This document shows positions 3,180-28,104 of a stretch of DNA of 32,000 nt, one piece after another. Source of the stretch: an uncultured Chloroflexia bacterium (GTDB lineage Bacteria; Chloroflexota; Anaerolineae; Anaerolineales; Anaerolineaceae); contig OY969938.1 of assembly GCA_963704755.1 (NCBI GenBank), positions 1,350,001-1,382,000 of the forward strand, read 5' to 3'. The first letter of the stretch is position 1. Every line of letters begins with the position of its first letter. A program made the position numbers and the translations under genes. The notes under the pieces were generated by a model. The model was not told the DNA's origin, did not search any database, and saw only the letters and a program-made list of their open reading frames with translations.

Positions 3180-3200
3180 ACTTCCTCGGATCGATCCATT

Positions 3201-4847: not shown

Positions 4848-4850
4848 TAG

Positions 4851-5837
4851 TTATAGGGAAATGGGTGTGTTTATTCGACTGGATTCCAGGATGGCCAGGG
4901 CAATCGCAAGGGCCTGTTTTCCATCCTGTAAGGTACATACCGGCTTTTCGTTCCCTTCCACAACACGCAAGAAATGGCGGGTTTGTTCCAGGAACAAATC
5001 GTTTCGCTCGAAGCCATCCGGCAGAGAAAAGAGTGTGGGAGAATCGCCCTGCTCCCGCGAGAGGGTTAAATTCCCGTTGGAATTATCCCACCGTATGGTC
5101 CCCTGGGTACCTACAATTTCCAGGCTGTGTTCTGCCGGTCTTTGCAGGTAGTCCAGGTGGACGGCAGCCACCAGGCCTTGATCGAATTTCAACAGGGCAT
5201 CGGCGCTTAAATCGACCTCGAGCTCTAACTCGGGGGAGGGATGGGTCGCGCCAAACACTTCGTGTGCCCGGCCAAAAAGCCAGCCCAGGTAATCCAATGG
5301 ATGGCAAAGGGTGCGGACCACCCCGCCGCCCAGGTCGGCCCGGGCCGCGTAAGACTGGCGATAATCTTCCCAGGGATGCCAGCCCGGCAGATACTCGCCC
5401 CAATGGGCACGCGCATGCACCGGCCGGCCGATGGTGCCCTCAGACAATAACCGGGCCGCGATGCGCAGGGTGGGATGGTAGCGGAACTGATAACCCACCA
5501 GGAGTTGGCCGCCCCCACTGCGCACAGCCGCCTCCAGGGCGTCGATCCTGGCCAGGCTGTCGGAAACCGGCTTTTCGATGAAAATATGACAGCCTGCCCG
5601 TGCAGCCGGGATGGCCACGTCCAGGTGCAGGGCGGTCGGGGTGGCGATCAGCACCGCGTCCGGGCGATGGGCCAGGGCAGCCGCCAGGTCAGTCTCGACC
5701 GGGATGTCGCGGATCTCATCCGTAGGCAGCGTCGACTTCTGGCTGCGCAGCAAGACAATGTCATGCTGGCCCAATTCGCTCAGGTTGCGCAGGTGCCGCC
5801 GGCCAATCGATCCAAAACCCACAATCAAAAATTTCAT
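4851..5837 (-). CDS. Gfo/Idh/MocA-family NAD(P)-dependent oxidoreductase
   Basis: 328 aa. N-terminal Rossmann MKFLIVGFGSIGRRH and the EKP motif (HIFIEKPV) typical of the family. Confidence 0.85.
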   Translation of the reverse strand: MKFLIVGFGSIGRRHLRNLSELGQHDIVLLRSQKSTLPTDEIRDIPVETDLAAALAHRPDAVLIATPTALHLDVAIPAARAGCHIFIEKPVSDSLARIDALEAAVRSGGGQLLVGYQFRYHPTLRIAARLLSEGTIGRPVHARAHWGEYLPGWHPWEDYRQSYAARADLGGGVVRTLCHPLDYLGWLFGRAHEVFGATHPSPELELEVDLSADALLKFDQGLVAAVHLDYLQRPAEHSLEIVGTQGTIRWDNSNGNLTLSREQGDSPTLFSLPDGFERNDLFLEQTRHFLRVVEGNEKPVCTLQDGKQALAIALAILESSRINTPISL

Positions 5838-5896
5838 AGGGTCCTTGTTTTCACAGCCTTTTCAGGAAAATTGGCAAATTTCACGCACATACCGGA

Positions 5897-7330: not shown

Positions 7331-7361
7331 ATGGATAATGATTTACTCCAGGATTTTTTCT

Positions 7362-7399
7362 GAATTTGAGGCACTTGCGGCTGCAAACACCTCAAATTC
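7362..7399. repeat. intergenic palindromic element, second member of the GAATTTGAG hairpin family
   Basis: Arms are gaatttgaggcacttgc and gcaaacacctcaaattc: a 10-bp and a 4-bp stem around a 3-nt bubble, with loop ggct. The reverse complement of the right arm (gaatttgaggtgtttgc) matches the 1024..1039 arm over gaatttgag, and the next 6 nt agree at 5 of 6 (gtgttt vs atgttt). Confidence 0.55.
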
Positions 7400-7418
7400 C
7401 GTCTTTTTATACGCAGAT

Positions 7419-8384
7419 TTACATCTGCCGGTCATAATACCAACGAAATATTTTGTCGTATAAACCCAGCAGTGCCCTCTTGACCGGTGGGAAATCCAGA
7501 ATCGGGTGTTTGCCGGCATCGGCCTGGCGGGCGGGGGCTTGCCCGGCCTGGGCCGCCTGCACCCCGCGCAGGGTATTGGACATGTTCATGGCGTAGGGCT
7601 GGACGGGCATCAGCCGCAGCAGGCCGGCCCCGTTCATGCGCTGGTCGAGCTGCTTGACCTGGCCCATCGGGCGGTCCATGGCGAAGGGCAGAAATTGGGC
7701 CAGCACCTTCTTGTAAGCCAGAAACTGCCAGTGCGAACCGCCCGCCAGGGCCTGCAGGCCGCGGTAGGTCAGGCGCACATCCTGGCTGGTCTCATAATGC
7801 TGGCGAATTTCCTCGTCGGATTGGCCCAGGCTGAGGTCGAACTCCTCGAAGGTCTCCCAGGGGATGAACTGGCCCTGCTCGACCGCCACGTCGGGAGTCG
7901 TTTGGCCCCAGGCGAGGGTCTTGCTATAAAAATCCGGGTTGGTGCGGAAGGGCCGGGAGGTGACCATGCCCACGTTGGGGTAGGTTTCCAGCAAGACCAG
8001 GCTCTCTTTCAGCCAGCCGGGGTAGAACAGCACGTCGCTATCGGCGTAGGCGATGATCTCGCCCGGCGCGCCGCTCAGAATCATGTTCCAGGCGCCACCC
8101 TTACCCAGGTTCTTCTCCGAAAGCAGCAGGTATTGAATGCGCCCCTCGCGCTGTTCATTGAGCAGCCAGTCCTGCACTTCCGGGCAGCTGCCGTTGTCGA
8201 AGACCATCAGGTCGAACGGCTCGCCGGCCTCGGTGCGGGCGGATTGCAGGCAGGCCTTGAGCACGTCCAGCGTCTCGCTGTAGAACCCGCTCAAAAAGGG
8301 AATGTAATTCAAAACCGCCGCGGTGATCCGCTCGGGTCGGGCAACGTTTTTCACATACTTGGCCGGGTTTTGGCCTACGCGCAT
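7419..8384 (-). CDS. family-2 (GT-A fold) glycosyltransferase
   Basis: 321 aa. Has MVFDNGS and YADSDVLF (DxD-type) motifs. Strong GAGGAG RBS 6 nt upstream of the ATG. Confidence 0.8.
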   Translation of the reverse strand: MRVGQNPAKYVKNVARPERITAAVLNYIPFLSGFYSETLDVLKACLQSARTEAGEPFDLMVFDNGSCPEVQDWLLNEQREGRIQYLLLSEKNLGKGGAWNMILSGAPGEIIAYADSDVLFYPGWLKESLVLLETYPNVGMVTSRPFRTNPDFYSKTLAWGQTTPDVAVEQGQFIPWETFEEFDLSLGQSDEEIRQHYETSQDVRLTYRGLQALAGGSHWQFLAYKKVLAQFLPFAMDRPMGQVKQLDQRMNGAGLLRLMPVQPYAMNMSNTLRGVQAAQAGQAPARQADAGKHPILDFPPVKRALLGLYDKIFRWYYDRQM

Positions 8385-8715: not shown

Positions 8716-9108
8716 TCATGACGCTTGCTCCTCGTAATTCAGGACAATTCGGCGCAACCCACGTTTCAGGACGGGCACATTGAAATTGATTAATAAAGCT
8801 GTTTTCCAACCGCCCAACTTTAAATAGGTGATCACCTGAGCCTCATGGATTGGCAACACAGTTTCAACACATTTCAATTCGACTACAACCAGATCTTCTA
8901 CCAAAAAATCCAACCGATAACCACAATTGAGGAGCCTGTCCTTGTAGTGAACAGGAAGCTCCATCTGTCTTCTAAAACTTAATCCTCTCAGGCCAAATTC
9001 ACAATCCAGGCATTCTTCATAGGCCGATTCCAATAAACCGGGGCCCAATACTTTATGAACCTCGATCGCAGCGCCTATAATTTTTTCAGTAACCTGGTTA
9101 ATTTCCAT
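8716..9108 (-). CDS. GxxExxY-family protein (PD-(D/E)XK nuclease-like fold)
   Basis: 130 aa. [13 protein letters not shown] contains the name-giving G-x2-E-x2-[14 protein letters not shown] is the D...E-x-K-like core. Visibly lower GC than the flanking biosynthetic genes. Confidence 0.85.
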
Positions 9109-9197: not shown

Positions 9198-9490
9198 CTC
9201 TTCTCTGCGCCCTCAGCGTCTCTGCGGTATTTTTCATTCCTAAATCCGCTTTTCTTCTCCGTGACCTCTGTGGCTTTTTATTCCAAAACCCATTCTTCTT
9301 CTCCGTGAACTCCGTGCCTCCGTGGTTTTCTATTCCAAAATCCTCTCTTCTTCTTTGTGCACTCTGTGGTTTTCTTTCTTTCTCTCTCTTTTCTTTTTTC
9401 TTAAATCCGTTTTTCTTCTCCGTGCACTCCGTGCCTCCGTGGTTATTTATTCCTAAATCCTTTGCGCCCTCTGCGTCTCTGCGGTGATTA
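9198..9490 (-). repeat. array of about six degenerate tandem units
   Basis: Read on the minus strand, each unit is GGATTT(A/T)GGAATAAA...CCAC(G/A)GAG(G)CACGGAG..CACGGAGAAGAA, or the CCGCAGAGACGC(A/T)GAGGGCGC variant. Units are at about 9198-9248, 9252-9291, 9293-9343, 9345-9400, 9413-9460 and 9461-9490. The outer units (9198..9229 and 9461..9490) are inverted copies of the 8418/8535 repeat. The last unit contains the TAA stop of the 9488..10399 gene. Confidence 0.8.
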
Positions 9491-10399
9491 TTTCTTCTTC
9501 AGCGCTTTGCGCAGTTCGGGCAGGCCTTTCCTGGGATGGAATACGGCATAAAAAAGCCACGCCAATCGAGAAGAGTGCAGGCGCACCAGCGGGAAGATCT
9601 CCACCTCGCGCCAGAAACGCCGCCAGGTCAGCGGCAGCCGGCGGATTTGGCCGCCCGCCAGACGGCAGGACACATCCGCCAGTTTGAAGATGGTCAATTT
9701 GCCGCCGCCCAGGCGCACGTTTTCGTCCGTCTCGGGCAGGCGATAATGGGGTTGGCCGTTCGGCAGGTGCGCATAATCGTGGTTCTGGTGGACCACCTGC
9801 ATGTCGGCGGTAGCGTCCACCACGGCCCAGCCGTTCCGGCGGGCAAAATAAATCATCCAGTTGTCCCAGCCGGCCCGCCCAACCGCCATGGGTGGCAGCG
9901 TAGCAAAGCAGGCGCGCGGGAAGATGAAGTAATCGCTGCCCCCGGCCGGGTGCAGCCGGCCGGCGTGAGCCAGGAAATCGCAAAGATGGGCATCCCAACC
10001 CTGCGAAAAATCGAGGTCCTCCTGCACGTCCAGGTCCCAGCGCTGGCCAACAACCAGGAATTTATCGAACCGCTCTGCCACACAGGCAGCCCCGCTGACA
10101 AAATCCGGCCGTAAAAGAATATCCGCGTTGACGTAGGCCAGCAGATCCCCGCTGCCTTGCCGGCGGGAGATATCGAAGATCGAGCTGATCAGCGGCGTGC
10201 CGTAACTGTTGCGGTCCACCTCTGCCACGTGTAAAACACCCAGGTCCCGCGCGGCTTGCTCGATACCGTCTTCGTTGCCGATCAGGATCACTTCAACCTG
10301 TGGTCCCAGGGCCTTCCACGAGCGGATGGCATTGCGCTGGATACGGGCAATATGCGCGTTGGTAAAGGGTTTCGGTGCAGTGAAAAGCGTCAGCAGCAT
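9488..10399 (-). CDS. putative GT-A-like glycosyltransferase (uncharacterised family)
   Basis: 303 aa. Coding quality is clear. The N-terminus FTAPKPFTNAHIARIQRNAIRSW and the acidic motif YVNADILL resemble a widespread unnamed glycosyltransferase-like family. The function is inferred from context. Confidence 0.5.
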   Translation of the reverse strand: MLLTLFTAPKPFTNAHIARIQRNAIRSWKALGPQVEVILIGNEDGIEQAARDLGVLHVAEVDRNSYGTPLISSIFDISRRQGSGDLLAYVNADILLRPDFVSGAACVAERFDKFLVVGQRWDLDVQEDLDFSQGWDAHLCDFLAHAGRLHPAGGSDYFIFPRACFATLPPMAVGRAGWDNWMIYFARRNGWAVVDATADMQVVHQNHDYAHLPNGQPHYRLPETDENVRLGGGKLTIFKLADVSCRLAGGQIRRLPLTWRRFWREVEIFPLVRLHSSRLAWLFYAVFHPRKGLPELRKALKKK

Positions 10400-10408: not shown

Positions 10409-12461
10409 TTAATTCCCGCAGGAAAGGTTGATTTTCAGCCAACCGTAGCGGTCGGCTTGGGCCGAATCGAGCGAACTCTCATCCAGCGAATCCTTCCAGA
10501 TCGAGCACAGGTACGGCTCTGCCCCGCGAACAGTCTTGCGGACTGTATCGGTCAAATCGTAGGCCTGGTCCCAATTCTGGGTATGGATATCCGCCTCGAT
10601 GAACGGGATCAGCTCGGTGCTGACATTGGTGCTGACCTGCGCCTTTTGGGCCTGGCTCCACAACTGGTTGACCGTATCCCACTGGCCAAACTGACGTGCC
10701 AGGTCCGCCTTCTGGTAATAGTAACACCAGCTATTCTGGTCCTGAACCGGGAAGAAAATTTTCTGGGCATAACCCGGATCGGGTGTATCTTTGATCAGCG
10801 ACATATCGGCCGCATCCAACGCAGTGCGCGTATCCTCATCGATCAGCGGGTTGAGCTTATCCTCCGGCGAAAGCACCCACAAGCAGGCGCCGGGTACCTC
10901 GCCATAGGAAATTACCAGGCTGCGGTTGCTGACACCCTGGAAAGAGTCTTGCCAGCGCACCTGAGTCACATCGACTCCGTTGGCCAGATCGTACATGTTG
11001 TTGGGAAAATACTTGCTCAAGGTCAGGAACCAGTAATCGAACTGGTTGGATTGTTTGGCCTGGTCGGATTGGGGGTAGAGCACATTTAAAGCAAATGAGG
11101 TGGGGTAAACCCCCATCTTGGAGAACAGTTCATTATCCGAAAGGATGAGCGTATCCGGCTCCAACTGGGGCACGCGCCAGCCCAATTGGGAATAGAAACG
11201 GGATTGGTTGATCCACGACCAGCGATAATCGCTCAAGTTGCGGGATTGGACCCCCACTGCCAGACCGATCAATACACTGATCACGATCAGCCGGGCTTTC
11301 TCGCTGCGCACCAGCCAATAGATCAGGGCCACAATCGCCAGGGCAGCCCCCGGCATGGATGCGATGCCAAAGCGGTCATTCCACAAGCCGCTGGTATCGC
11401 TGATGTGGCGGTCGACCAACCAGCCCGGCAGGAAACCCAGGACCATCCAGGCAACGCCAACCCAAAACGCCTGTATATACCAGGTGGAGGAAGAATTCTC
11501 TTCCCGTTCTACCGGCTGGGTAATGAACCGGCTAAAAAAGAACACCCCAATTGCCACCAGGATGAATAAGCCCAGGGCCAGAATCAGCGCCGGGGAAGTG
11601 AAATCGATCATCGAGGGATCGAAAGCACCCGACCAGGTATAAAAGACCATGTGAACCAGGTCGCGCAGGCTGGACTGGACCAGGCTTAAAATTCTTAACC
11701 GGCGATTGGGCCAGCAATTGGAATAACTTGACGTAATTCCGGTCCCGGCTGATGGGGAGTTGGATAAAGAACTCGCGCCAGACCACAAACGCCACCCAAA
11801 CGGCCAGGTAGGGCGCCCACATTTTGATCACATACAGGCGGCGCTTTTTGGGATCGGAGGAGACATTTTTGGAATACAACCACAGCAGGATGGGCCGGAA
11901 CAGCTCCAGGCCGACAAAGAACTCCTCCAGCACAAAACCAACCCCATTCAGAATCAATCCCAGCAGAGTCAGGGGGATGGCCCAGCGCGGTTTTTGAGTG
12001 GCCAGGATCATCAGGTAGAAAGTGGCCACGATGCACAGGAACGAGAACCAATGCGCACTGAAGGTGAGGGAAATGGGCTGCTGCATAAACTGGGGATAGA
12101 CCAGGAAGAGCAGGGCCGCCAGTGTGACCAGCACCCGCTGTTTGGGCCAGATCTGGTTGAACACCAGCCAGAAGAAAATAACGGTCAACACCCGGGCAGT
12201 GAAGGTGAAGATCTGCCAGGCCAGGGCGTTATAACCCAGGGTTGCGAAAAGCGGCAAATAAAACCAGCCGGAGAGCGGACGGGTATCGACTGCGTGGAAA
12301 AGGATCGTACCGGCGTTGCCATTGGCAGTCTGGAAGAAAAGATTGGGCCAATCATCCAGGTAAAAACCGATCTGGGGCAGGTATATCCCAAAAGTGACCA
12401 GGGCAACGGCCAGAATGGCCAGGACCGGCAGGAGTTTGCCTTTTCGCAATTTATTGATCAT
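10409..12461 (-). pseudogene. large polytopic membrane protein (GT-C-like glycosyltransferase, oligosaccharyltransferase or polymerase candidate) with a +1 frameshift near 11688..11696
   Basis: ORFs 11532..12461 and 10409..11788 overlap in different frames. The sensible sequence switches from ...KLFQLLAQSPVK (frame of 12461) to ILSLVQSSLRDLVHMVFYTW... (frame of 11788) at an A4/T4 run. Joined, the protein would be about 680 aa: more than 10 hydrophobic segments, an early FYLDDWPN loop and a soluble C-terminal domain of about 280 aa. Confidence 0.7.
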
Positions 12462-13237
12462 GGTTCTCAGCTCTTAAATCTACGTCAAACATGCTTTTAT
12501 GTCGCACGTCAGCATTGATTTCCTGTAACTCGGGGTGGGCCTGCCAGGCGGTCAATACATCCTGCCAGGAAAAATTGTGGCGCTCGGCCAATAAATCGAA
12601 CAATTTGCGCACAACCTGTAAATCCTGCTCGGTATCCACCGTCCAACGCAGGTCACCGTAATCCTGCTCGGCATCCACCACCACTACCTTTAAAGCGGCC
12701 CGGTTGATCGTACAGATAGGGCATCACGTGCTCGCGTTCGTGGGGCAGTTTAGCCTCGTTCCAGGCCCGCTCCAGGGCCGTAAAGCTGCACACTTCCACA
12801 TCCAGGCCAATGGGATAGGTGCGCTTATAAGGCGGCGGGAGGCGGTTCGCGGCGAAGTCCGCGCCCTGTTCGAAGAAGGCCCGCACCGTCCGGTCGATCA
12901 CGCCCGGGTCGATCAAGGGGCAGTCGGCGGTAATCCGCACGATCACGCTCGCATCGGCCAGGCTGGCCGCCTGGTAGAAGCGGTCGAGTACATCGAACTG
13001 GCTGCCGCGGTAGCACAGGTAGCCTTCCCGGCTGCAAGTCAACTCAATCGGGTCATCGGAAGGATCATCGCTGGTCGCCACGATCACCTCATTGATCGTC
13101 TCCGCGCTGGCCGTCCGGTCCATAACGTGGCACAACATCGGCCTCCCGGCGATCGGCTTAAGCACTTTACCGGGCAAACGGCTGGAATTCATCCTCCCCT
13201 GTATAATGGCAATCGCCTGTTGGTTACTTGCGTCCAT
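12451..13237 (-). pseudogene. SpsF-type cytidylyltransferase (CTP_transf_3-like), with a +1 frameshift near 12686..12695
   Basis: N-terminal IAIIQGRMNSSRLPGKVLKPIAGRPML is the SpsF signature. Frame 1 ends ...YLYDQPGRFK then nonsense. The next frame continues VVVVDAEQDYGDLRWTVDTEQDLQVVRKLF, the conserved family C-terminus. There is an extra G in the context tttaaaGgta. Confidence 0.8.
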
Positions 13238-13428
13238 TTCAATGCTTTCGTTGTTTCAATTTCAGGTTTACGAGCAGCTTTCTCTTTCAAAAGGAAGCTC
13301 GGGTTCCGTGCAATGTTGGCGGGAACGAATAGTGTTCTAACAATGCTGCCCAAAGGCAGGTGAAGTATACTCCCGCAAATCGCGAGAGCGGTTTTGCATA
13401 TCCGGGAGAAAAGTGGGAACTGCCATAG

Positions 13429-14541
13429 CTATTCCGGCCTGCCCTGCCGGGCAAGCTGGTAGGCTCGCAGCAGCTCCTGGAAATTCTTGTTCCAATCGGC
13501 CCGCTGTTCGGCTAACCGGCGTGATTGGCTGCCCAGGCCGGCCAACTGATTTCGCTGCTCATAGGCTCGCAAGATACCCTCGGTAACGGCCTGGTCGTCC
13601 CCATCCGGGAACATCCAGCCTTGTTCGGGTGTGACCCATTCGCGGTTTCCGGGGATATCTGTAACCAGCACCGGCAGGCCGCTGGCCAATGATTCCAGCA
13701 AGGAAACCGAGGTACCATCACTGTGAGAGGCGCTGGCGTACAGATCGGCCACGCGATACCAATCGGGCAATTCGGTCTGGGTGACCCTCCCGCCAAAATA
13801 GACCTGTTCCATCACCCCGGCCTGCAGCAAGATGCTGCGCAGTTCGGCGGTCTGCGAGCCGGCTCCCAGCAGCGCCAGGCGTAGCTGGGGCACCTGTTGA
13901 GCAGCGCGCACAAAGCCGCGCACCAGCACGTCCACCCCATAAATCGGTTCCCAGGAGCGCAGCGAGAGCACCACAAAGGCATCTTCCCAGCCGAGCCGTT
14001 CACGCAGGGTTTGGTTTTTTCCAGGCTTGAAGCGCTGCAGGTCCACGCCCCATGGGAAAAGTACCACTCTTTCGGATGGAAAGCCGAACTCGGCGGCCTT
14101 TTCCTGTTCGGCCCGGCAATCACCGACCAGGACCGCCGTCCGGTCGAGGGTGTAGCGGGTCGCCCGCTGCATCCAGGGCGATTGATCGGCCTCCTTGAGC
14201 AGGTCCGAGCCCCAGGTCATGGTCACCAGCGGCTGAAAGCCGCTGCGCGCGGCCAGGTAAGCGGCCGATTGGACCGGCCCGGCATGGATCAGGTCGGGCT
14301 GGATTTCACGGATCACCCGGCGCAGTTCTGCCAGCAAGTGCGGGTAATCGCGCGGTTCGGCCGGCTGCCGTCCGCCGGCCCAGGGCACCTGGGTAATCTC
14401 CGGCGGCAAAGGCCGGTCCTCCAACTGCACGCCGCGGCGTTCCAGGCGCAAAGCGTACACCTGGTGCGCAGTCCCGGCCAGCGCGCTCAGAAAGCGGTGG
14501 TCGTGGGGAGAGTAGTCGCGGGTGAAATACAAAAGTTTCAT
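13429..14541 (-). CDS. GT4-family (GT-B) glycosyltransferase
   Basis: 370 aa. The C-terminal SHSDGTSVSLLESLASGLPVLVTDIPGNREWV is the E-x7-E region typical of GT4 enzymes. Confidence 0.85.
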   Translation of the reverse strand: MKLLYFTRDYSPHDHRFLSALAGTAHQVYALRLERRGVQLEDRPLPPEITQVPWAGGRQPAEPRDYPHLLAELRRVIREIQPDLIHAGPVQSAAYLAARSGFQPLVTMTWGSDLLKEADQSPWMQRATRYTLDRTAVLVGDCRAEQEKAAEFGFPSERVVLFPWGVDLQRFKPGKNQTLRERLGWEDAFVVLSLRSWEPIYGVDVLVRGFVRAAQQVPQLRLALLGAGSQTAELRSILLQAGVMEQVYFGGRVTQTELPDWYRVADLYASASHSDGTSVSLLESLASGLPVLVTDIPGNREWVTPEQGWMFPDGDDQAVTEGILRAYEQRNQLAGLGSQSRRLAEQRADWNKNFQELLRAYQLARQGRPE

Positions 14542-14561
14542 GATTCTTACTGCGTGATAGA

Positions 14562-14596
14562 GTGATTCGGTGATTTAGTGTCTCGGTTGTTCAGTG
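14562..14596 (-). repeat. left arm of an imperfect 35-bp inverted repeat flanking the four-helix-bundle gene
   Basis: The reverse complement, cactgaacaaccgagacactaaatcaccgaatcac, matches 15100..15134 at 26/35 positions (hand alignment). Confidence 0.55.
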
Positions 14597-14673
14597 ATTC
14601 TCAGATGGCATTTTACATAAATTGGATCGGAATTCCAATTTGGCTCTTTGTAAACATACGCTGCGCCCCATGG

Positions 14674-15045
14674 CTATTTTGTACGTTGGTATTGTGAGCT
14701 TCTCAGTGAACCGATCATTGACTTGATAAGTTCAATCTTTTTATAAAGCGTATCAAATTTATTCTGATCGATATATCCGGCATCCAAAGCGACATAAAGT
14801 AAGGATTGAACTTCAGCGCCTGAGCGGTGGGCAATTCCAAGAAATTTCGCAAATTCAATCGGCGATTTACAATCAAAACCTTCTGCGATGTTGGCCATGA
14901 TTGACACTGAAGCTCTGCGAAGCTGGTCAGAAAGTCCATAGTCTTTACCAAGCGGCGGAACGGATGCCATTCGGTAAATTTCCTGTGTCAACAACCGTGC
15001 TTCTTGCCAACCCTTGATGTCTTCGAAACTGCGAATGAGCGGCAT
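14674..15045 (-). CDS. four-helix-bundle protein (23S rRNA intervening-sequence protein / Avd-like family)
   Basis: Has FEDIKGWQEARLLTQEIY, SDQLRRASVSIMANIAEG and GIAHRSGAEVQSLLYVA, characteristic of the family. I place the start at the ATG at 15045 (MPLIRSF), which has a GGGGAAG RBS, rather than the track start at 15096. Lower GC than its neighbours. Confidence 0.85.
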   Translation of the reverse strand: MPLIRSFEDIKGWQEARLLTQEIYRMASVPPLGKDYGLSDQLRRASVSIMANIAEGFDCKSPIEFAKFLGIAHRSGAEVQSLLYVALDAGYIDQNKFDTLYKKIELIKSMIGSLRSSQYQRTK

Positions 15046-15099
15046 GCAGGTCTTCCCCTTTGAACTCATCAAACTTCTGATGGATGAGAAGAACACTTA

Positions 15100-15134
15100 C
15101 ACTGAAAAACCGAAAAACTGTATCACTGGAAAAC
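15100..15134 (+). repeat. right arm of the inverted repeat flanking the four-helix-bundle gene
   Basis: cactgaaaaaccgaaaaactgtatcactggaaaac; see 14562..14596. Confidence 0.55.
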
Positions 15135-15139
15135 GATTT

Positions 15140-16216
15140 TTAAACCAAATCCGTCCAATACATTTCCTTTCCGGCCGGGATATCATGCGCGGCGGTAGTG
15201 CCGACCACACGGGAGATATCCGGAGGGAGGATGGCGCCGCGGACGGCCGGACGCAGCACGTTCAGCATCTCACGGGTGATCACGTCGCCGGCATGGATGT
15301 CCTGCCCGGCACGCAGGCAGCGCCGCTGCAAAACGACCGTTTCCTGCTCGTTGCCGGCCACGTCCTTGTCGGCTGAACCCAGGGCCAGCTCCAACTCGCG
15401 GCTGCGGGTGACCATCTCCGCCCAGGCGATTGGGTCCAGCGCGAAAGCGTGATCCGGGCCATCCCGCAGGTTGTCGTCGGTGAAGTGCTTTTCGATCACC
15501 CGCGCGCCCAGGCTGATTGCACCCAGCACGGCCGCATGGCCGGGGGTATGGTCCGAAAGACCTAACACCGTCTCCGGGAACATCATCTGATATGTCTTCA
15601 ACACGTTCAGGTTGACATACTTGAAGTTCTCCAGGCTGCCGGTGTAATTGGTATTGCACTGCATCAGCACCAGTTGCGGATTCCTGGCCAGGATGGTATG
15701 CGCGGCCTGCTGGACCTCGCCGATTGTGGCGGCGCCGGTGGCCAGCAGCACCGGTTTACCTTTAGCCGCAATCCGGTCGATGGCCTCCAGCCAATCGATT
15801 TCACCCGAGCCAATCTTATAGACCGGCATATACTCGTCCAGGAAATCGATAGCCTCGAAGTCATATGGGGCCGAAAAATAATCGATGCCGACCTTGTCAC
15901 AGGTCTCCTTCAGTTCATTGGTCCACTCGAAGGGAATCGAAGCGGCCTGGTAAACCTCATAGACCGATTTTTTCCACTGAGCCTGGTGGGACTGCTGCCC
16001 GCCCAGCGATTTGAACCCGTAATCGGAAACAATCTTGGGAGCGCTGAAGTTCTGGAATTTGGCAGCATCCGCACCGGCCTGTTTGGCCAGCTTGATCAAA
16101 TATTTGGCCCGCTCCAGGCTACCATCATGGTTTGCGGCGATATCCGCCACAAAATACACTGGGTGGTCTTCACCGACCAACCGATTGCCGATTTTGATTT
16201 CCATCTTACCCTCCAT
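15140..16216 (-). CDS. neuB: NeuB/PseI/LegI-family nonulosonic-acid synthase, full length with a C-terminal SAF domain
   Basis: 358 aa. Has VGEDHPVYFVADIAANHDGSLERAKYLIKLAKQAGADAAKFQNF, LSDHT and EKHFT motifs. The C-terminal approx. 60 aa (RRCLRAGQDIHAGDVITREMLNVLRP...) are SAF-like. An alternative start at 16204 has a GGAGG RBS. Confidence 0.9.
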   Translation of the reverse strand: MEGKMEIKIGNRLVGEDHPVYFVADIAANHDGSLERAKYLIKLAKQAGADAAKFQNFSAPKIVSDYGFKSLGGQQSHQAQWKKSVYEVYQAASIPFEWTNELKETCDKVGIDYFSAPYDFEAIDFLDEYMPVYKIGSGEIDWLEAIDRIAAKGKPVLLATGAATIGEVQQAAHTILARNPQLVLMQCNTNYTGSLENFKYVNLNVLKTYQMMFPETVLGLSDHTPGHAAVLGAISLGARVIEKHFTDDNLRDGPDHAFALDPIAWAEMVTRSRELELALGSADKDVAGNEQETVVLQRRCLRAGQDIHAGDVITREMLNVLRPAVRGAILPPDISRVVGTTAAHDIPAGKEMYWTDLV

Positions 16217-16236
16217 GCTCTCTCTAGGGTGGTCTA

Positions 16237-17172
16237 TTAATCGATTTCCTGGCTTACCCTGGCCAACGAGCGGATCGTCTCGGCCGTACCGTCGCCCATC
16301 TGCCGGTAAAAACGCTGCAAACCTTCCGCCACGCCCGGTGCGGGTTCGCCCAAGGTCCGGGCAAGCTTATCGGTGCGCATACGCAGGTTGGGCGAACGCC
16401 TGGCAACCAGCCCGCTCTCCAAGACCCTGACCGGCTGTACGCGGGCCGGGTCAAACCCGAAAATTTCAGCGATCCGGCAGCCGAAGTCGTATTTGCTCAA
16501 ACAATCCCGGCTGAGGACGTGATAAATCCCTTGCACGTCCAGCTCAACCAGGCGCAGCAAGGTCTCGCCTAACTGGGTCACTTCCAGCGGGCAAAAGAAC
16601 ACATCGGTAAAGCCCCTAACCGGCAAATTTTCGGAAAAAGAGCGGTAAAAATATTCGCTCAGACTGCGCCGGCCGGTCAAACTCCAGCCATAAAAATTGA
16701 CCCGGGCGACCAACGCCCGCGGGCAGGCCGCCAGGACCTTTTCTTCAGCCGCCAGTTTGCTGTTTGCATACACGCCCAATGGATTGGGCCGGTCCTCTTC
16801 GCTATAATTTCCCCGGGCGCCGTCAAAGACGGCATCGGTGGAGATGTGCACCAGCTTGAATCCATCCCGGGCAGCCCGTTCGGCCAGCCGCTGCGGCGCC
16901 AGGGTATTGATCTGCCAGGCCAGCTCCGGCTGGCTTTCGCAGGCATCGATGTTGGCCAGGGCCGCGCAGTGTAAAACGACCTCGGGCTCGGCCTGGTCGA
17001 TCAGCTTATCCAGCGCTTCTGGTTGGGCCAGGTCGGCCTGGACAAACGCAAAAGGTGCTTTCTGCAAGGAATTGTGGTTGACCACACCGGTCACCGTATG
17101 CCGGCGGTAATACATCATAGCAAAATTCAAGCCCAGCAGTCCGCTGGCGCCGGTGACCAGAATGCGGGTCAT
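16237..17172 (-). CDS. RmlD-like (dTDP-4-dehydrorhamnose-reductase family) NAD(P)-dependent sugar-nucleotide reductase
   Basis: Has ILVTGASGLLG, then HCAALANIDACE and VHISTDAVFDG, typical of the RmlD substrate-binding family. I place the start at the ATG at 17172, which overlaps the pseB stop (ATGA). The track start at 17244 would overlap pseB by 76 nt. Confidence 0.8.
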   Translation of the reverse strand: MTRILVTGASGLLGLNFAMMYYRRHTVTGVVNHNSLQKAPFAFVQADLAQPEALDKLIDQAEPEVVLHCAALANIDACESQPELAWQINTLAPQRLAERAARDGFKLVHISTDAVFDGARGNYSEEDRPNPLGVYANSKLAAEEKVLAACPRALVARVNFYGWSLTGRRSLSEYFYRSFSENLPVRGFTDVFFCPLEVTQLGETLLRLVELDVQGIYHVLSRDCLSKYDFGCRIAEIFGFDPARVQPVRVLESGLVARRSPNLRMRTDKLARTLGEPAPGVAEGLQRFYRQMGDGTAETIRSLARVSQEID

Positions 17173-18185
17173 TCCAAAGTACCCTGTTTGTAGTCCTCTT
17201 CGATGGGATGGACGATCTCGCGGATTTTTTCCAAAGTCAACCATTCCTGGTTGGTATTGCTAGCATAGCGGAAGCCATCTTCCAGCGGTACGCCCTCATA
17301 GCGCAGGTCGCGCTGCCAGAGTGCCTGGGTAGGCGTAACGATATAACGATCAGGCAGTTCCACGGTGCTGCGTGCCTCATCTTCGGAGATCAGTACCTCG
17401 TGTAATTTTTCGCCTGGGCGGATGCCGATGGTTTCGATGTGGGCTTTAGGCGCAACCGCCTTGGCCAGGTCGACCACCTTCATGCTGGGAATTTTCGGCA
17501 CGAATACCTCGCCGCCCAACATTTGCTCGGTGCAGCCGATCACGAACCGCACACCCTGTTCCAACGAAATCCAAAAGCGGGTCATGCGGTCATCGGTGAC
17601 GGTGATCGAACCCGATTCGCGTTGTTTAAGGAAGACCGGTACCACACTCCCTCGGCTGCCAACCACGTTGCCATAACGGACGCAGCTAAAGCGGGTGGCC
17701 GTTCCACCGGCGTAGCTGTTCGATTGGACAAATAACTTTTCGGCCGCCAGCTTGGTCGCCCCGTACAGGTTGATCGGGTTGACCGCTTTATCCGTGCTCA
17801 AGGCGATCACTTTGGTCACCCCGGCATCCAGAGCCGCTTCGATGACGTTGCTGGAGCCCAGGATATTGGTCTTGATCGCTTCCATCGGATTGTATTCGCA
17901 GGCCGGCACCTGTTTGAGCGCCGCCGCGTGGACCACAATGTCCACCCCGTGAAAAGCCCGGCGCAGGCGCTGCTGGTCGCGTACATCACCGATAAAATAA
18001 CGCAGGCTCTTGTCGTCGTAGCCGGCCTGGCGCATCTCGTGCTGCTTGAGTTCGTCCCGGGACAAAACGATGATCTTCGCCGGTCGGTATTCTTCCAGCA
18101 TTACCTTGATGAATTTCTTTCCGAAGGAACCCGTTCCTCCGGTAACAAGGACAACTTTATCGCTCCAATCCATCCTGTTCTCCAT
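17169..18185 (-). CDS. pseB: UDP-N-acetylglucosamine 4,6-dehydratase (inverting), PseB/FlaA1 type
   Basis: 338 aa. Collinear with my recollection of Helicobacter FlaA1/PseB: VLVTGGTGSFGKKF, LSRDELKQHEM, FIGDVRD, AAALKQVP, EYNP, IKTNI, LSTDKAVNPINLYGATKL, RYGNVVGSRGSVVP, MTRFWI, GGEVFVPKIPSMK and GIRPGEKLHE. An alternative ATG at 18173 has a GGAG RBS. Confidence 0.9.
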   Translation of the reverse strand: MENRMDWSDKVVLVTGGTGSFGKKFIKVMLEEYRPAKIIVLSRDELKQHEMRQAGYDDKSLRYFIGDVRDQQRLRRAFHGVDIVVHAAALKQVPACEYNPMEAIKTNILGSSNVIEAALDAGVTKVIALSTDKAVNPINLYGATKLAAEKLFVQSNSYAGGTATRFSCVRYGNVVGSRGSVVPVFLKQRESGSITVTDDRMTRFWISLEQGVRFVIGCTEQMLGGEVFVPKIPSMKVVDLAKAVAPKAHIETIGIRPGEKLHEVLISEDEARSTVELPDRYIVTPTQALWQRDLRYEGVPLEDGFRYASNTNQEWLTLEKIREIVHPIEEDYKQGTLE

Positions 18186-18296: not shown

Positions 18297-19166
18297 TTAA
18301 GGCTTTCGTACCACGATCAGAGGGTACTGGCCCTTTTCACCATAATAATGTGGGAAGCGCTCTTCCAGTCTGTACAGCAGGCGCAGCCAGTACCTGCCGC
18401 CCAGGGCCGTATGAAATACCGCCCGCGAAAACCGTACGCTGATGCTGCGCCAGACCAGGATGTCCACATCCAGGTCGGCCAGCTCTTGCCTCAACCGGCC
18501 GGCGTTGAGTTTTTCGACAAAGGTGCCGGTCGGGTCCTTGGCGGCCGGGCCGCCATAGGAGTCCGCTTTTTCTGTCACAGGTTTGGCTTTGGCCGGGTGG
18601 CGCAGGCTGTTTACCAGCTTTCCAAGCCAGGCCATCGCATTCTCCAGCCACTTCCAGCGGTTCATCAGGGCCGATTCGGTCCAGCCGTTAACGACCACCG
18701 CTTGCGAGCCGGGGGCCAACGAGCGATAGATTCCACGGTAAGCCGGCCATTGGTCCTCCAGCGGCAGGTGGTGCAGTGTGTGCAGCGAAACTACTCCGTC
18801 GAAGGCGTTCGACTTGAACGGCAGGTTGGCCACGTCGGCCACCACGTACAGGCCATGCTGACCCAGGCGCTTGCGCGCCTCCTGCAGGGCCACAATCGAA
18901 ATATCTGCACAGACCCGGTAGTCATACCCTTCCGAAAAGGTCAAATACTCTGCATACTGGACCGGCCCAGAACCGGCGTCCAGCAAAAAGCGACCCGTGG
19001 GTTTAAGATGTCTCTTTACCCGCAGATGGCATTTATGGATGTATTCCCGCGCCACCGGGCGCAAATCTTCGTAACGGGCATTCTGGTACTGGCCCTGGCC
19101 GACTAACTGCCAGCCAACCTGGTCATAGAACCTGCGTACCCGTTCCTTAACGTCAACCTCTCCCAT
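18297..19166 (-). CDS. class I SAM-dependent methyltransferase
   Basis: LLDAGSGPVQY (motif I) and AFDGVVSLHTLHHL (Methyltransf_11-like). I place the start at the ATG at 19166 (MGEVDVKERV), preceded by GAGGTAGAGGTG. The longer track start would overlap the upstream gene. Confidence 0.8.
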   Translation of the reverse strand: MGEVDVKERVRRFYDQVGWQLVGQGQYQNARYEDLRPVAREYIHKCHLRVKRHLKPTGRFLLDAGSGPVQYAEYLTFSEGYDYRVCADISIVALQEARKRLGQHGLYVVADVANLPFKSNAFDGVVSLHTLHHLPLEDQWPAYRGIYRSLAPGSQAVVVNGWTESALMNRWKWLENAMAWLGKLVNSLRHPAKAKPVTEKADSYGGPAAKDPTGTFVEKLNAGRLRQELADLDVDILVWRSISVRFSRAVFHTALGGRYWLRLLYRLEERFPHYYGEKGQYPLIVVRKP

Positions 19167-19180: not shown

Positions 19181-20818
19181 CTATTGAGTATTTACCCGCG
19201 TCCTGGTCCCATTCTCCTGCGAATAGGCCCAATCGAAGGGCTCGCCCACAAGATAGCGGAAAGTGCGCTCGTACATGCCCTTATGCTCGCTGGTCAGCAC
19301 CGCGGCCAGGGGGTGGGTTTTGTAATCTTCCCAGGCCCTTACCAGGTGCCAGGGGAAATTCTGGGGGTAATCGAAGAAAAAGCGGTAGGCGTAATTCCAG
19401 GCGCTCTCCACTTCGTTCTTTTTCAGGCGAAAATCCGCCGGGTTTTCCAGAATCGATCCGAGCAATTTAAAATAGGATACCCACGAATCGGGATCAAAGG
19501 TGAAGCCGCGGTCGCGGTAGTGGGTCTGCCCGGAAACGACCACCGGAACGCCGTTCATGGCCATTTCCATGCCTACCGTGGTGGTGTACACCAACCCCAG
19601 GTCGGCCACATCGATCAAATCGTAGGTATTAATTTCGTCCTGGGCGCGGATGAGGCGGATGTTATCCGGCAGACGCGGCAGGGCTTCCAACACCACATCG
19701 GCCATCGACTGGCCGTGGGTCAGCACTTCCCCCGGGTGGATACGGATCACCAACTGGATGTCCGGGCGGCCTATGAAATACTGCACGGTCCGGCTGATCC
19801 ATTCCGCCATACTCTTCGAAAAGACCTGCCGGCCCAGGGTCAGGCTGTCGCCCAACACGTTGGTTGCCAATAATACCATCGGGCGTTTATCCAGCCCGAG
19901 TTTTGCCCGGGCCTGTTCGCCGCCTTCGGCCGGGATACCCTGCCATAGGCGGGCAAAGTTTTCCCACATCGAGCCGCGCTGGCGGGCCACCATCAGGCTG
20001 TGCATCCGCTCCAATTGCTCATCATTCAAGGGCTGTTCACGGAAGGCTTTCCACAAGCCATCGGTATCCTGGCGCATAACCTCGCTGTTCTGGGCAATCC
20101 AGATGCGTTGGCGCTGGTCGCTGAATTCATAAGTGACGGTAGGGATCTTCAAATAACGTGCTACCCGGTAAACCACACCCAGTTCCTGGATGGTCCCATT
20201 CGGAACAATGACCACATCCGGCTGGCTCTGGCGCAAATAAGCCAGGGTAGATTGGGCGATATCCCGGTTGCGGTTGAGCCGCAATTTATAGACCGCATCC
20301 TCCGGATCGAAATCTTCCTTCTGCAAGGTGTATTGGGTATCGTAAGTGGATACTTCCTGGACAGCCTGGACGAGTTCTTTGGGTAATGGAATATAAGGGG
20401 CGCGGACACTCAAAAAAGAAATCGAATCGAAAGCCGGCCGGCCAAGTTCGAGCACACGGCGGGCGTAGGCGTTTTGCCGGCGCAGATCGAAGCGGTTGAT
20501 CTCGCTCTGCCAGTCAGCGTATGGCAAATAGCCCAGGATCACCTTATGTCCCTGGGCACCTAATGCGGCTGAAAGAAGAGCGGCGTGCTCGATCCAATAA
20601 TGCAGCGTGGCAAAAACAAATACTTTCTTGCCCTCAGGCGCGTCCTTGGCAATCTCGACGGCCTGCCGGGAAATTTCCGGCAGCTCTTCCTGTAAGTTAC
20701 GCAAAGAAAACCGGCTGCGCAGTGGCTTATTCCGCTGGCGGGCCAGATAATATAATTCTGCTGTAAATGGGATCCCTCCCAACATTCGCTTTATTGCTTC
20801 TTTTCCCGAGGGTGCCAT
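19181..20818 (-). CDS. capsule-biosynthesis-like protein (KpsS/KpsC 'Capsule_synth'-like GT-B with an HP motif)
   Basis: 545 aa. QLVIRIHPGE is followed by YDLIDVADLGLVYTTTVGMEMAMNGVPVVV. The overall layout resembles KpsS/KpsC-type CMP-sugar transferases. Starts 1 nt after the Wzt stop. Confidence 0.6.
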   Translation of the reverse strand: MAPSGKEAIKRMLGGIPFTAELYYLARQRNKPLRSRFSLRNLQEELPEISRQAVEIAKDAPEGKKVFVFATLHYWIEHAALLSAALGAQGHKVILGYLPYADWQSEINRFDLRRQNAYARRVLELGRPAFDSISFLSVRAPYIPLPKELVQAVQEVSTYDTQYTLQKEDFDPEDAVYKLRLNRNRDIAQSTLAYLRQSQPDVVIVPNGTIQELGVVYRVARYLKIPTVTYEFSDQRQRIWIAQNSEVMRQDTDGLWKAFREQPLNDEQLERMHSLMVARQRGSMWENFARLWQGIPAEGGEQARAKLGLDKRPMVLLATNVLGDSLTLGRQVFSKSMAEWISRTVQYFIGRPDIQLVIRIHPGEVLTHGQSMADVVLEALPRLPDNIRLIRAQDEINTYDLIDVADLGLVYTTTVGMEMAMNGVPVVVSGQTHYRDRGFTFDPDSWVSYFKLLGSILENPADFRLKKNEVESAWNYAYRFFFDYPQNFPWHLVRAWEDYKTHPLAAVLTSEHKGMYERTFRYLVGEPFDWAYSQENGTRTRVNTQ

Positions 20819-20819
20819 G

Positions 20820-22073
20820 TTAAATTGCCTCTATTTTCCAATCCAATCGCGGCCTTACCGCTCCCAGGCGCGGTTCGGGCCATTGCATCCCCGGCGCACC
20901 GGCCGGGTCCACGGTAAAGACCAATGCCTGCTCATCCTGGAAATAGCGTTTTATGCGATATGAGCTGGCATTAATACCAATGACGAACCGGCCTTCATTG
21001 AGCAGGTTTGCCGGTAGGCTGCAGCGGCTAATGTAATGGCCGGGTTGGCGCACGGCCATTTTCTCATAAATACACGGCTCGTCGGTATCGAAAGACGTAA
21101 AAACGTATTCGCCACGGGTACTCATCAAATAAACTCCGACGCGCAGCCCGGCGATGGGTGCATTGACCCGGTATTCGATTTCCATGTAGTTATCTTCGAT
21201 CGACCGGATCGTATCCATTACCTTGCCCTGCCCGTTCAAAACACGCACAGCCAGGGGTTGGAAAGGATAAGCGCTGGCGGGCACTTCGTCTGCATCCCAG
21301 GTCCGTTGACCCTCTTGGGCAAAACCTTGCGAAAGGTAAAAATCGACTGCCTGGGGCGTCGGCGCGCGCAGGACCATGGTACCTTTATCGATCACCAGGG
21401 CCTCGTTGGTCAGGCGTAAAACCGCCGACATATTATGGCTGACGAACATTACCGTGCGGCCTTCGCGAGCCACATCGCCCATTTTGCCCAGGCATTTGCG
21501 CTGGAATTCCGCATCGCCGACCGCTAGCACCTCGTCCACCACCAGAATTTCCGGTTCCAGGTGGGCAGCCACTGAAAAAGCCAGACGCAGGTACATGCCG
21601 CTGGAATAGCGTTTGACCGGGGTATCGATGAACTGTTCCACCTCAGAAAAAGCGACAATTTCGTCGAACTTTCGCTCGATCTCGGTGCGCTTCATCCCCA
21701 AAATGGCTCCATTGAGGTAAATATTCTCACGGCCGGTCAATTCCGGGTGAAACCCGGTGCCAACTTCCAGCAGCGATCCAACCCTGCCATGGATTTCCGC
21801 CTCCCCTTCGGTCGGTTCGGTAATGCGGGAAAGCAACTTCAACAAAGTACTTTTACCGGCACCGTTCCGGCCAATCACGCCAAGGACCTGGCCTTGCTGG
21901 ACATCGAAGGAAACATTGCGCAGCGCCCAAATATGGTCAGCTTTCGAGTGATGGTCGCCGCCGTGGAATATCCCGGCAATGTTATCCCGCAAGGTATGGT
22001 AACGCTGCTCGTAGAGCGCACCGATTCGATATTGTTTTCCTATATTCGAGACCCGTAGGGCAATATCGCTCAT
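20820..22073 (-). CDS. wzt: polysaccharide ABC exporter ATP-binding protein (Wzt/TagH/KpsT type) with an extra C-terminal domain of about 170 aa
   Basis: Walker A (GRNGAGKST), the TagH/Wzt-typical GFHPELTGRENIYLNG, the signature YSSGM and Walker B (ILVVDE). Residues from about 250 to 417 lie beyond the NBD and are beta-rich, like Wzt_C. ATGA overlap with wzm. Confidence 0.9.
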   Translation of the reverse strand: MSDIALRVSNIGKQYRIGALYEQRYHTLRDNIAGIFHGGDHHSKADHIWALRNVSFDVQQGQVLGVIGRNGAGKSTLLKLLSRITEPTEGEAEIHGRVGSLLEVGTGFHPELTGRENIYLNGAILGMKRTEIERKFDEIVAFSEVEQFIDTPVKRYSSGMYLRLAFSVAAHLEPEILVVDEVLAVGDAEFQRKCLGKMGDVAREGRTVMFVSHNMSAVLRLTNEALVIDKGTMVLRAPTPQAVDFYLSQGFAQEGQRTWDADEVPASAYPFQPLAVRVLNGQGKVMDTIRSIEDNYMEIEYRVNAPIAGLRVGVYLMSTRGEYVFTSFDTDEPCIYEKMAVRQPGHYISRCSLPANLLNEGRFVIGINASSYRIKRYFQDEQALVFTVDPAGAPGMQWPEPRLGAVRPRLDWKIEAI

Positions 22074-22921
22074 ATCATATCCGCAAAGATGCGCTCCATC
22101 CGGCGGAAATAGAACAAACCGGATACAAACAGGACCAGGACCACGCCAACCGAAACCAGGGTTGTAGCGCCGGGCGGATTAGTGCCCAAAATAGCCCAGC
22201 GGAAGCCCTGGATCACACCAACCATCGGGTTGAGCGCGTAGATCCACTGCCAGATCTTGCCGGTATTGATCACACTGGCCGAATAAACCACCGGGGAAAT
22301 GTACATCCAGGCCGTCAGCACGAACGGCACCATTTGCTGCACGTCGCGGTACTGGACGTTTAACGCCGAAAGCCACAAACCAATCGCCAGGGCGGTCAAC
22401 AATGCCAGGAGCAAAAAGACCGGCAGCCATATCAAATGGATGCTGATCGGCATCTTGTAAAAGATGATCAGTGCCACCATGACGAAAAAGGAGAACACGA
22501 AGTCCACCAAACCGGCCGCGACCGCCGCGATAGGGATAATCAGCCGGGGGAAATACACCTTGGTGAGCAAGTTGGCGTTGGTCACCAGGCTGATGCTGGC
22601 CCGCTGCGCAGCAGACTGAAAAAACTGCCAGGGCAGCAAACCGGCAAAACTAAAAATTGGATACAGATCAGCCGGGATACCTGGATCAGGTTGGACATTC
22701 AACAGTTTATTGAAGATCACTGTAAAAATGACCATGCTGAAAACCGGCTGTAAAATGGCCCAACCAATACCCAGAACGGCCTGCTTATAACGAACTTTGA
22801 TGTCTCGCCAGGTAAGGAAATAAATCAGTTCGCGATATTTCCACAGGTCGCGCAGGTTAACAGATAACCACCCACGAGATGGGCGGATAAGGGTGATGTT
22901 TGATTCTGCGCGAACAGCCAT
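22070..22921 (-). CDS. wzm: ABC-2 type polysaccharide exporter permease (Wzm/TagG/KpsM type)
   Basis: 283 aa. Six hydrophobic segments. The N-terminal LWKYRELIYFLTWRDIKVRYKQAVLGIGWAILQP is the ABC-2 family signature. GGAG RBS. Confidence 0.9.
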   Translation of the reverse strand: MAVRAESNITLIRPSRGWLSVNLRDLWKYRELIYFLTWRDIKVRYKQAVLGIGWAILQPVFSMVIFTVIFNKLLNVQPDPGIPADLYPIFSFAGLLPWQFFQSAAQRASISLVTNANLLTKVYFPRLIIPIAAVAAGLVDFVFSFFVMVALIIFYKMPISIHLIWLPVFLLLALLTALAIGLWLSALNVQYRDVQQMVPFVLTAWMYISPVVYSASVINTGKIWQWIYALNPMVGVIQGFRWAILGTNPPGATTLVSVGVVLVLFVSGLFYFRRMERIFADMI

Positions 22922-28086: not shown

Positions 28087-28104
28087 CTATTCCTCCACTT
28101 ACAT

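Follow-up and report, generated by a model that had tools for sequence, protein, structure and literature searches.

The DNA analysed here, a 32 kb window (the whole stretch, contig OY969938.1 positions 1,350,001 to 1,382,000) of a single-contig 4.87 Mb genome from an uncultured member of the Anaerolineaceae, carries a cassette of five genes, all on the minus strand, which by its sequence and distribution is a real, conserved and uncharacterised variant of nonulosonic acid biosynthesis. A PseB dehydratase is coupled to an RmlD-family reductase, and downstream of the pair lie genes for a NeuB-family synthase, a GT4-like protein and an SpsF-type cytidylyltransferase. We lean towards the reading that the reduced sugar, probably uridine diphosphate (UDP)-6-deoxy-L-AltNAc (AltNAc, N-acetylaltrosamine), feeds the synthase, and that the product is a 5-acetamido-3,5,9-trideoxy-nonulosonic acid activated with cytidine monophosphate (CMP). 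By the same modest preference, the five genes would form a portable pathway, with a product that has a hydroxyl where pseudaminic acid carries its second amino group. The cassette genes are as follows.

17169..18185, minus strand: PseB, inverting UDP-GlcNAc (GlcNAc, N-acetylglucosamine) 4,6-dehydratase, assigned from TIGR03589 and a T-x9-Y-x3-K motif.
16237..17172, minus strand: RmlD-family NAD(P)H reductase (Red), proposed UDP-4-keto-6-deoxy-L-AltNAc 4-reductase, assigned from PF04321 and motifs.
15140..16216, minus strand: nonulosonic acid synthase with NeuB and SAF domains, a member of the reductase-adjacent clade, assigned from hidden Markov model scores, tree and signature.
13429..14541, minus strand: GT4-like GT-B protein with Pfam GT4 domains, candidate UDP-sugar-releasing enzyme or 6-deoxy-HexNAc (HexNAc, N-acetylhexosamine) transferase.
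12451..13237, minus strand: SpsF-type cytidylyltransferase (PF02348, E 1.3e-30), proposed to perform the CMP activation, with a 1-nt frameshift near 12690.

In the proposed pathway PseB would act first, as the inverting UDP-GlcNAc 4,6-dehydratase expected from knowledge of its family, and the reductase would reduce C4 to give UDP-6-deoxy-L-AltNAc. RmlD-type reductases act on beta-L-configured 4-keto-6-deoxy nucleotide sugars, and RmlD-type stereochemistry would give the reduced sugar its altro configuration. UDP would then be removed, with the GT4-like protein as the candidate enzyme, and the dedicated synthase would join the free 6-deoxy-HexNAc and phosphoenolpyruvate (PEP) to form 5-acetamido-3,5,9-trideoxy-non-2-ulosonic acid, from which the SpsF-type enzyme would make the CMP sugar. 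In Anaerolineae the glycan exported by Wzm/Wzt would receive this sugar, perhaps through the action of a KpsS/C-like protein. The acid predicted for this route has the formula C11H19NO8 (monoisotopic mass 293.11); its DMB derivative is calculated to lie near m/z 410.16 [M+H]+, from the same 116.04 Da increment that yields 451.18 for di-N-acetyl Pse/Leg (PMC7371886).

The dehydratase and its coupled reductase

The product of the first gene scores 505.6 bits on the PseB model TIGR03589, above the cut-off of 407.75, and 250 bits on the FnlA model, well below the cut-off of 730. Its catalytic motif is T131-x9-Y141-x3-K145, with a tyrosine in place of the methionine that a CapE-type dehydratase has at this catalytic position (PMC7439481). 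Judged from these features, the dehydratase is of the PseB type and not of the FnlA type.

The reductase matches PF04321 with an E value of 5.8e-58 and has the fold and catalytic features of the RmlD superfamily (GxxGxxG and a Thr/Tyr/Lys triad); G8-G14, S111-T112-D113 and Y135xxxK139 are invariant in 14 homologues. It scores 193 bits on the rmlD model TIGR01214, below the cut-off of 224, and a separate true RmlD (274.9 bits) is encoded at 4.33 Mb. The window reductase thus shares fold, catalytic residues and GxxGxxG motif with RmlD and RmlD-like 4-reductases but falls below the rmlD cut-off, and its gene is associated with those of PseB and NeuB rather than with rmlABC. Translation starts at the ATG at 17172 rather than at 17244, and the junction of the pseB stop and the reductase start, GGAATGACC, is a 4-nt ATGA overlap. 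The overlap recurs in 37 of 66 Anaerolineae loci, and coupling conserved to this extent argues for consecutive steps. The gene layout given in an earlier note on this DNA (the overlap, a NeuB with SAF domain next and SpsF further on) is borne out by domain scans and by this reading of the junction; the note passes over the GT4-like gene, the small gene inserted at 14674-15096 and the frameshift in the SpsF-type gene.

Comparison with Protein Data Bank (PDB) structures gives 119.7 bits to the RmlD entry 2ggs and 26.8 bits to the Pal entry 6bwl; no CapF-like chain is found among the PDB matches down to E 0.01, in a comparison that did not include a WbvR reference sequence. By these scores the reductase is an RmlD-family paralogue that is not Pal-like and does not appear to be CapF-like, and its identification as Pal, the second half of the Bacillus thuringiensis Pen/Pal dehydratase, was rejected. 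A search for longer forms of the reductase yielded, besides one contig with a Red::GT4 fusion, only fusions of a more distant RmlD-like subfamily with a DegT aminotransferase domain (P0385 and P0391-P0393, 525-738 amino acids).

A Polysacc_synt_2 dehydratase followed by a short-chain dehydrogenase/reductase superficially resembles an ordinary L-FucNAc, L-RhaNAc or L-QuiNAc pathway (FnlABC, CapEFG, WbvBRD) or a Pen/Pal two-enzyme dehydratase. WbvR of Vibrio cholerae O37 is itself an RmlD-like UDP-sugar 4-reductase. However, the dehydratase is not of the FnlA/CapE type on the scores and motif above, no CapF-type match was seen among the PDB structures, Pal scores far lower than RmlD, and the locus contains no 2-epimerase of the FnlC/WbvD type, all of which make this explanation very improbable.

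Search for pseudaminic acid genes

The earlier note had found no PseC/DegT aminotransferase, PseH acetyltransferase or PseG/NeuC hydrolase within the 32 kb, and a domain search agrees, with no DegT, GNAT, PseG or Epimerase_2 domain in any scanned open reading frame of the window. Profile searches were extended to the whole 4.87 Mb genome, with family cut-offs deciding, and here too no pseC, pseH or pseG reaches its cut-off. The best match to PseC (350 bits, cut-off 423.5) is 340 kb away in a separate exopolysaccharide (EPS) locus, that to PseH (70.5 bits, cut-off 93.1) is at 2.6 Mb, and that to PseG scores 26.3 bits against a cut-off of 153.55. The complete pseC/pseH/pseG set that, together with a CapF-type reductase, would have marked the pair as part of an ordinary 6-deoxy-HexNAc pathway was thus not found in this genome.

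Three strong DegT genes are present, all more than 100 kb from the window. The one at 1.69 Mb is part of a different locus, which also encodes a LegB-like dehydratase, a nucleotidyltransferase, a polyprenyl phosphotransferase and a Wzc-type kinase. No gene in the genome matches NeuC at cut-off; the sole Epimerase_2 gene, at 3.19 Mb and 1.8 Mb away, scores 78.6 on the NeuC model (cut-off 235.9) and encodes WecB (484 bits), which is non-hydrolysing; a UDP-ManNAc dehydrogenase gene adjoins it. A GlcNAc 2-epimerase is likewise missing at the family cut-off. With no PseC, PseH or PseG, an Epimerase_2 protein that is WecB and no GlcNAc 2-epimerase, the genome shows no other supply of hexosamine for the synthase. 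A dispersed legionaminic acid pathway, assembled from the LegB-like, nucleotidyltransferase and DegT genes at 1.69 Mb and the Epimerase_2 gene at 3.19 Mb, was considered and rejected, the former being a separate Wzc/phosphotransferase EPS locus and the epimerase being WecB.

The synthase

The synthase gene starts 20 nt past the reductase stop and is one of only two NeuB genes in the genome, both of which are in this window. Its product scores 271.6 bits on NeuB_NnaB (TIGR03569; cut-off 399.65) and 250.8 bits on the PseI model (cut-off 340.25), below the threshold in each case. A placement of this paralogue among PseI and NeuB had been proposed in the earlier note, and we constructed a tree of 49 rows that includes 36 synthases from reductase-type loci, five canonical PseI and two canonical NeuB_NnaB; five of the 36 come from loci where reductase and synthase were not seen side by side or their adjacency was unchecked. 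The 36 form a single clade (98 in the Shimodaira-Hasegawa-like approximate likelihood ratio test, SH-aLRT) that is sister to the five canonical PseI rows (100), and both are apart from the two NeuB_NnaB rows.

All 36 clade members share the signature K-[IVA]-G-[SA]-G and QC[NVI]TNY, the window copy reading KIGSGE and QCNTNY. At the second glycine of the signature the PseI rows carry Phe, Tyr or Pro. The same position is tied to the orientation of the C2 N-acetyl group, with Phe in the pseudaminic (Pse) pathway and Gly in the neuraminic (Neu) and legionaminic (Leg) pathways (PMC7371886).

The cassette in Anaerolineae and in other phyla

Judged by its nearest homologues, the genome that holds the window is an Anaerolineae genome close to Bellilinea. 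Close relatives of the reductase family number more than 4,300, and at least 531 species-level genomes encode one. The best 80 of these are all from Chloroflexota, nearly all labelled Anaerolineae, and include the cultured Ornatilinea apprima and Pelolinea submarina. A locus of roughly 20 kb is colinear in those best 80, in the order MarR, epimerase, Wzm, Wzt, KpsS/C-like, methyltransferase, PseB, Red, NeuB, GT4, SpsF, more glycosyltransferases and a second module around a SAF-less NeuB. Since the whole locus is colinear, synteny in Anaerolineae alone does not define the five-gene unit. Among 201 evenly sampled Chloroflexota genomes, all 17 that belong to the window's family and order have a reductase-type synthase, and canonical PseI is present in three of the 201.

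A diverse set of 80 metagenome loci was fetched with more distant members of the reductase family, which share 32-47% identity with the lead sequence of alignment A2. Where enough flanking sequence is available, the synthase directly follows the reductase in 40 of 55 loci and is further downstream in another 10, and PseB directly precedes the reductase in 26 of 54 and is elsewhere in the locus in 20. The order PseB-Red-NeuB-GT4-CTP (CTP, cytidylyltransferase) is found in 13 loci, PseB-CTP-Red-NeuB-GT4 in three and PseB-PseC-CTP-Red-NeuB-GT4 in three. In the isolate Modestobacter sp. SYSU DS0875 (Actinomycetota) the order is PseB-Red-NeuB-GT-CTP, followed by a flippase-like gene and with unrelated neighbours, and the cassette proteins share 38-65% identity with their window counterparts (the cytidylyltransferase being compared with that of a relative, L026). 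A Gemmatimonadota metagenome-assembled genome has CTP-Red-NeuB-GT4 among unrelated flanking genes.

The most informative arrangement is that of locus L119, which has a complete canonical set above cut-offs (PseB 498.9, PseC 465, a PseG::GNAT fusion 229.3 and PseI 496.7 bits). Beside this set it has the reductase, with an additional, non-canonical synthase (288 and 262 bits, each under its cut-off) and an additional cytidylyltransferase immediately behind it, and no GT4. The gene content of L119 suggests a pathway that branches off at the PseB product, shares PseB and PseG, and needs a synthase and an activating enzyme of its own.

The GT4-like protein and release of UDP

The predicted model of the GT4-like protein (predicted local distance difference test score, pLDDT, 91.8) has a GT-B fold with the GT4 C-terminal domain present. 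Its nearest folds are BshA, MshA, HepE and PimB', with a template modelling score (TM-score) of 0.8 to BshA, MshA and HepE; BshA and MshA use UDP-GlcNAc. Many residues of its N-terminal domain are invariant across phyla. In the main synthase subclade the gene is directly 3' of the synthase gene in 25 of 30 loci. Counted by locus, 26 have the GT4-like protein only, three have a PseG-like protein only, none has both and eight have neither, a mutual exclusion with a Fisher p of 0.02 that ignores kinship among the loci. The Red::GT4 fusion (P0339) links both proteins and is given little weight because it occurs in a single contig.

These observations suggest that the GT4-like protein may be the UDP-releasing enzyme, or may equally be a transferase for the 6-deoxy-HexNAc, and the fold search on the predicted model did not separate hydrolase from transferase. 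An extended version of the proposal, in which it is a new UDP-sugar-releasing enzyme (a PseG replacement, or even a hydrolysing epimerase) and the five genes are a complete pathway to fusaminic-type trideoxy nonulosonic acids, universal in Anaerolineales and scattered in Actinomycetota, Gemmatimonadota and other phyla, is possible although doubtful. One other protein, u310 (9488-10399), was considered as the missing hydrolase and rejected, as it is present only in Anaerolineae-type loci and not in the other architectures.

Alternative explanations

Several points weigh against the proposed pathway, whose basis is gene content, synteny and phylogeny, with the chemistry deduced from these. No UDP-sugar hydrolase was identified in the genome with the PseG model or with Glyco_tran_28_C, matches to the latter all being more than 2.4 Mb away. 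The fold of the GT4-like protein is that of an ordinary retaining GT4, and PseG is not among the 50 best structural matches of its model. Loci that lack the GT4-like protein often have a small GT2 protein adjoining the reductase, in keeping with a transferase function in that position. In the synthase clade the PseI Phe is replaced by Gly, and the substrate may therefore not be altro-configured; with this Neu/Leg-type residue the stereochemistry of the product is not to be assumed Pse-like. In about one in five of the diverse loci a true PseC (479.8 bits, cut-off 423.5) and the Pse-associated methylase (TIGR03587) stand beside PseB, in addition to Red-NeuB-GT4, which implies that the reductase is not simply a substitute for amination. 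Finally, the cytidylyltransferase gene is frameshifted in this genome. It spans 787 nt (12451-13237), which is not a multiple of three, and one extra G near 12690 shifts the frame; a tblastn comparison with an intact relative aligns residues 1-183 in frame -2 and residues 182-246 in frame -3, with the break at 12689-12693. The cassette in this particular genome may be broken.

We note that in five of the loci without a GT4-like protein (L120, L121, L122, L125 and L126) a GT2-family protein of 214-224 amino acids directly follows the reductase or the synthase, and may be an alternative occupant of the functional slot of the GT4-like protein. In L128 (3847-11127), and also in L130 and L188, PseC and the TIGR03587 methylase lie between PseB and the cytidylyltransferase, with Red-NeuB-GT4 next, and these loci have no PseH, PseG or PseI.

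One alternative is that the dehydratase-reductase pair makes only UDP-6-deoxy-L-AltNAc or another 6-deoxy-HexNAc, which the GT4-like protein transfers to a glycan, and that NeuB and SpsF use another precursor for an unrelated nonulosonic acid. This would account for a structurally normal GT4, nearest to UDP-GlcNAc-using enzymes, that constantly accompanies the pair, for the GT2 that replaces it elsewhere, and for the failure of the genome searches to find a hydrolase. However, the genome lacks NeuC/LegG, PseG and GlcNAc 2-epimerase and so has no alternative precursor route, the reductase adjoins the synthase more often than it adjoins PseB, the synthase clade tracks the reductase, and L119, with its complete Pse pathway, has a second synthase and cytidylyltransferase immediately after the reductase. 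We therefore consider this explanation unlikely. The earlier note had left a choice between sugar supply only and use of the reduced sugar by NeuB; the lack of pseC, pseH and pseG in the genome, the separate synthase clade and the RmlD-family reductase favour the second. Supply of 6-deoxy-HexNAc may be an additional role, given the ordinary-looking GT4 that accompanies the pair.

A second alternative is that the reductase acts at a different step, for example on a C5-epimerised 4-keto-6-deoxy-D-GlcNAc or on an intermediate of the PseC route, and gives another isomer or a diamino or N-methylated nonulosonic acid. The loci in which PseC and the Pse-associated methylase co-occur with Red-NeuB-GT4 point in this direction, as does the Neu/Leg-like Gly at the synthase position linked to C2 geometry; loci of this PseC-containing kind may yield two products or a product of another type. 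In contrast, most of the diverse loci are without an aminotransferase, none was found in any Anaerolineae locus examined, this genome has no PseC, and the ATGA coupling of pseB and the reductase gene is conserved. This explanation thus seems to us a good deal less probable still. The idea in the earlier note that the reductase stands in for the canonical aminotransferase fits the gene content of this genome, but not that of those related loci that have a true PseC as well.

Neighbouring genes

Other genes close to the cassette are listed below.

14674..15096, minus strand: four-helix-bundle gene (23S rRNA IVP family; PF05635, E 2.6e-32), an insertion outside the pathway.
18297..19166, minus strand: S-adenosylmethionine (SAM) methyltransferase between the Kps-like gene and pseB (PF08241, E 2e-17).
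19181..20818, minus strand: KpsS/KpsC-like protein of 545 amino acids, candidate CMP-ulosonate transferase (weak Capsule_synth match, E 0.002).
20820..22921, minus strand: Wzt and Wzm ABC exporter pair (ABC_tran plus Wzt_C; ABC2_membrane).

The four-helix-bundle gene is not at this position in the relatives, where the synthase and GT4 genes abut. A second small gene inside the operon, at 8716-9108, encodes a PD-(D/E)XK_3 protein, and both look like selfish insertions. The SAM methyltransferase is kept in most Anaerolineae loci. The Capsule_synth family of the KpsS/KpsC-like protein is also matched by its homologue in L026 and by proteins of L115 and L119, and the presence of such proteins alongside the reductase-synthase pair in unrelated loci suggests that they are transferases for the CMP sugar.

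Two further genes near the cassette are disrupted. The gene for a 696-amino-acid membrane protein downstream of it has a frameshift near 11690 (11685-11695), and a lipoprotein gene (3201-3971) has an in-frame TAA (3657-3713). Together with the SpsF-type gene these make three disrupted genes inside about 9 kb, which reflect either long-read assembly errors or real decay of the locus. The lipoprotein gene belongs to a pair of paralogous lipoprotein-like genes (3201-4847), each encoding a signal peptide and Cys, a linker rich in Pro and Thr, and a C-terminal domain rich in Cys; their products are possible glycan acceptors.

A second ulosonic acid module at 87-8384 consists of a SAF-less NeuB, a cytidylyltransferase::HAD phosphatase fusion, a short-chain dehydrogenase/reductase, a GFO/IDH/MocA oxidoreductase and a GT2. 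The module probably follows a Kdn-like route via a phosphorylated intermediate, and is conserved together with the PseB-reductase module across Anaerolineae. At the other end of the window (27000-32000) the G+C content drops from about 57% to 34-43%, and this stretch, which holds glycosyltransferase and methyltransferase fragments and open reading frames without a Pfam match, may have been acquired horizontally.

Relationship to known pathways

The closest known system is the CMP-pseudaminic acid pathway of Campylobacter jejuni and Helicobacter pylori (PseB, PseC, PseH, PseG, PseI, PseF). The cassette has the same first enzyme, a bona fide PseB, and is predicted to follow the same logic, in which UDP is split from a 6-deoxy-HexNAc, a NeuB-family synthase joins the free sugar to PEP and the resulting acid is activated with CMP; the synthase clade is also sister to PseI. 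It differs in having an RmlD-family reductase coupled to PseB in place of PseC, PseH and PseG, a synthase that scores too low for PseI and carries Gly at the position of the PseI Phe, and the GT4-like protein as an added constant member. The cytidylyltransferase is SpsF-type (CTP_transf_3) and not PseF, scoring 24 bits on TIGR03584 against a cut-off of 205.7. PseB is thus the only one of the six components present. The Bacillus subtilis sps legionaminic pathway (SpsM, C, D, G, E, F; PMC7439481) likewise uses UDP-linked intermediates, an SpsF-type protein and a NeuB-family synthase; however, it has an aminotransferase, an acetyltransferase and SpsG and makes a diamino sugar, unlike the product predicted for the cassette.

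The O-antigen of Fusobacterium nucleatum ATCC 25586 is described as containing L-6dAltNAc and a 5-amino-3,5,9-trideoxy-nonulosonic acid in one repeat unit (PMC13014188; Vinogradov 2017 as cited in PMC7371886). This fusaminic-type sugar belongs to the same class as the predicted product, with one nitrogen, a 9-deoxy position and a 7-hydroxyl, and occurs alongside the predicted hexose precursor, which indicates that both uses of the UDP sugar could coexist. It differs in its 5-acetimidoyl group and has a tentative L-glycero-L-gluco configuration, and it is known as a chemical structure only. The earlier note had suggested a 9-deoxy, 7-hydroxy mono-amino product outside the standard Pse and Leg sugars; the predicted class does differ from Pse, but an acid of this kind is already known chemically from strain 25586. 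In the literature searched we found neither genes assigned to a trideoxy mono-amino nonulosonic acid nor a described reductase-type route to nonulosonic acids.

Nonulosonic acids shape bacterial surfaces and their recognition by phages and immune lectins. For the trideoxy mono-amino class, which has a known structure in F. nucleatum, the cassette provides a concrete and testable candidate pathway, in an order that is very common in sludge and sediment. Its presence in cultured strains (Pelolinea submarina MO-CFX1, Ornatilinea apprima P3M-1, Longilinea arvoryzae and Modestobacter sp.) makes enzymology and mass spectrometry feasible. If the proposed route is correct, it would offer chemoenzymatic access to 7-hydroxy analogues of pseudaminic acid, and if the GT4-like protein does release UDP, this would be a new function for the GT4 family.

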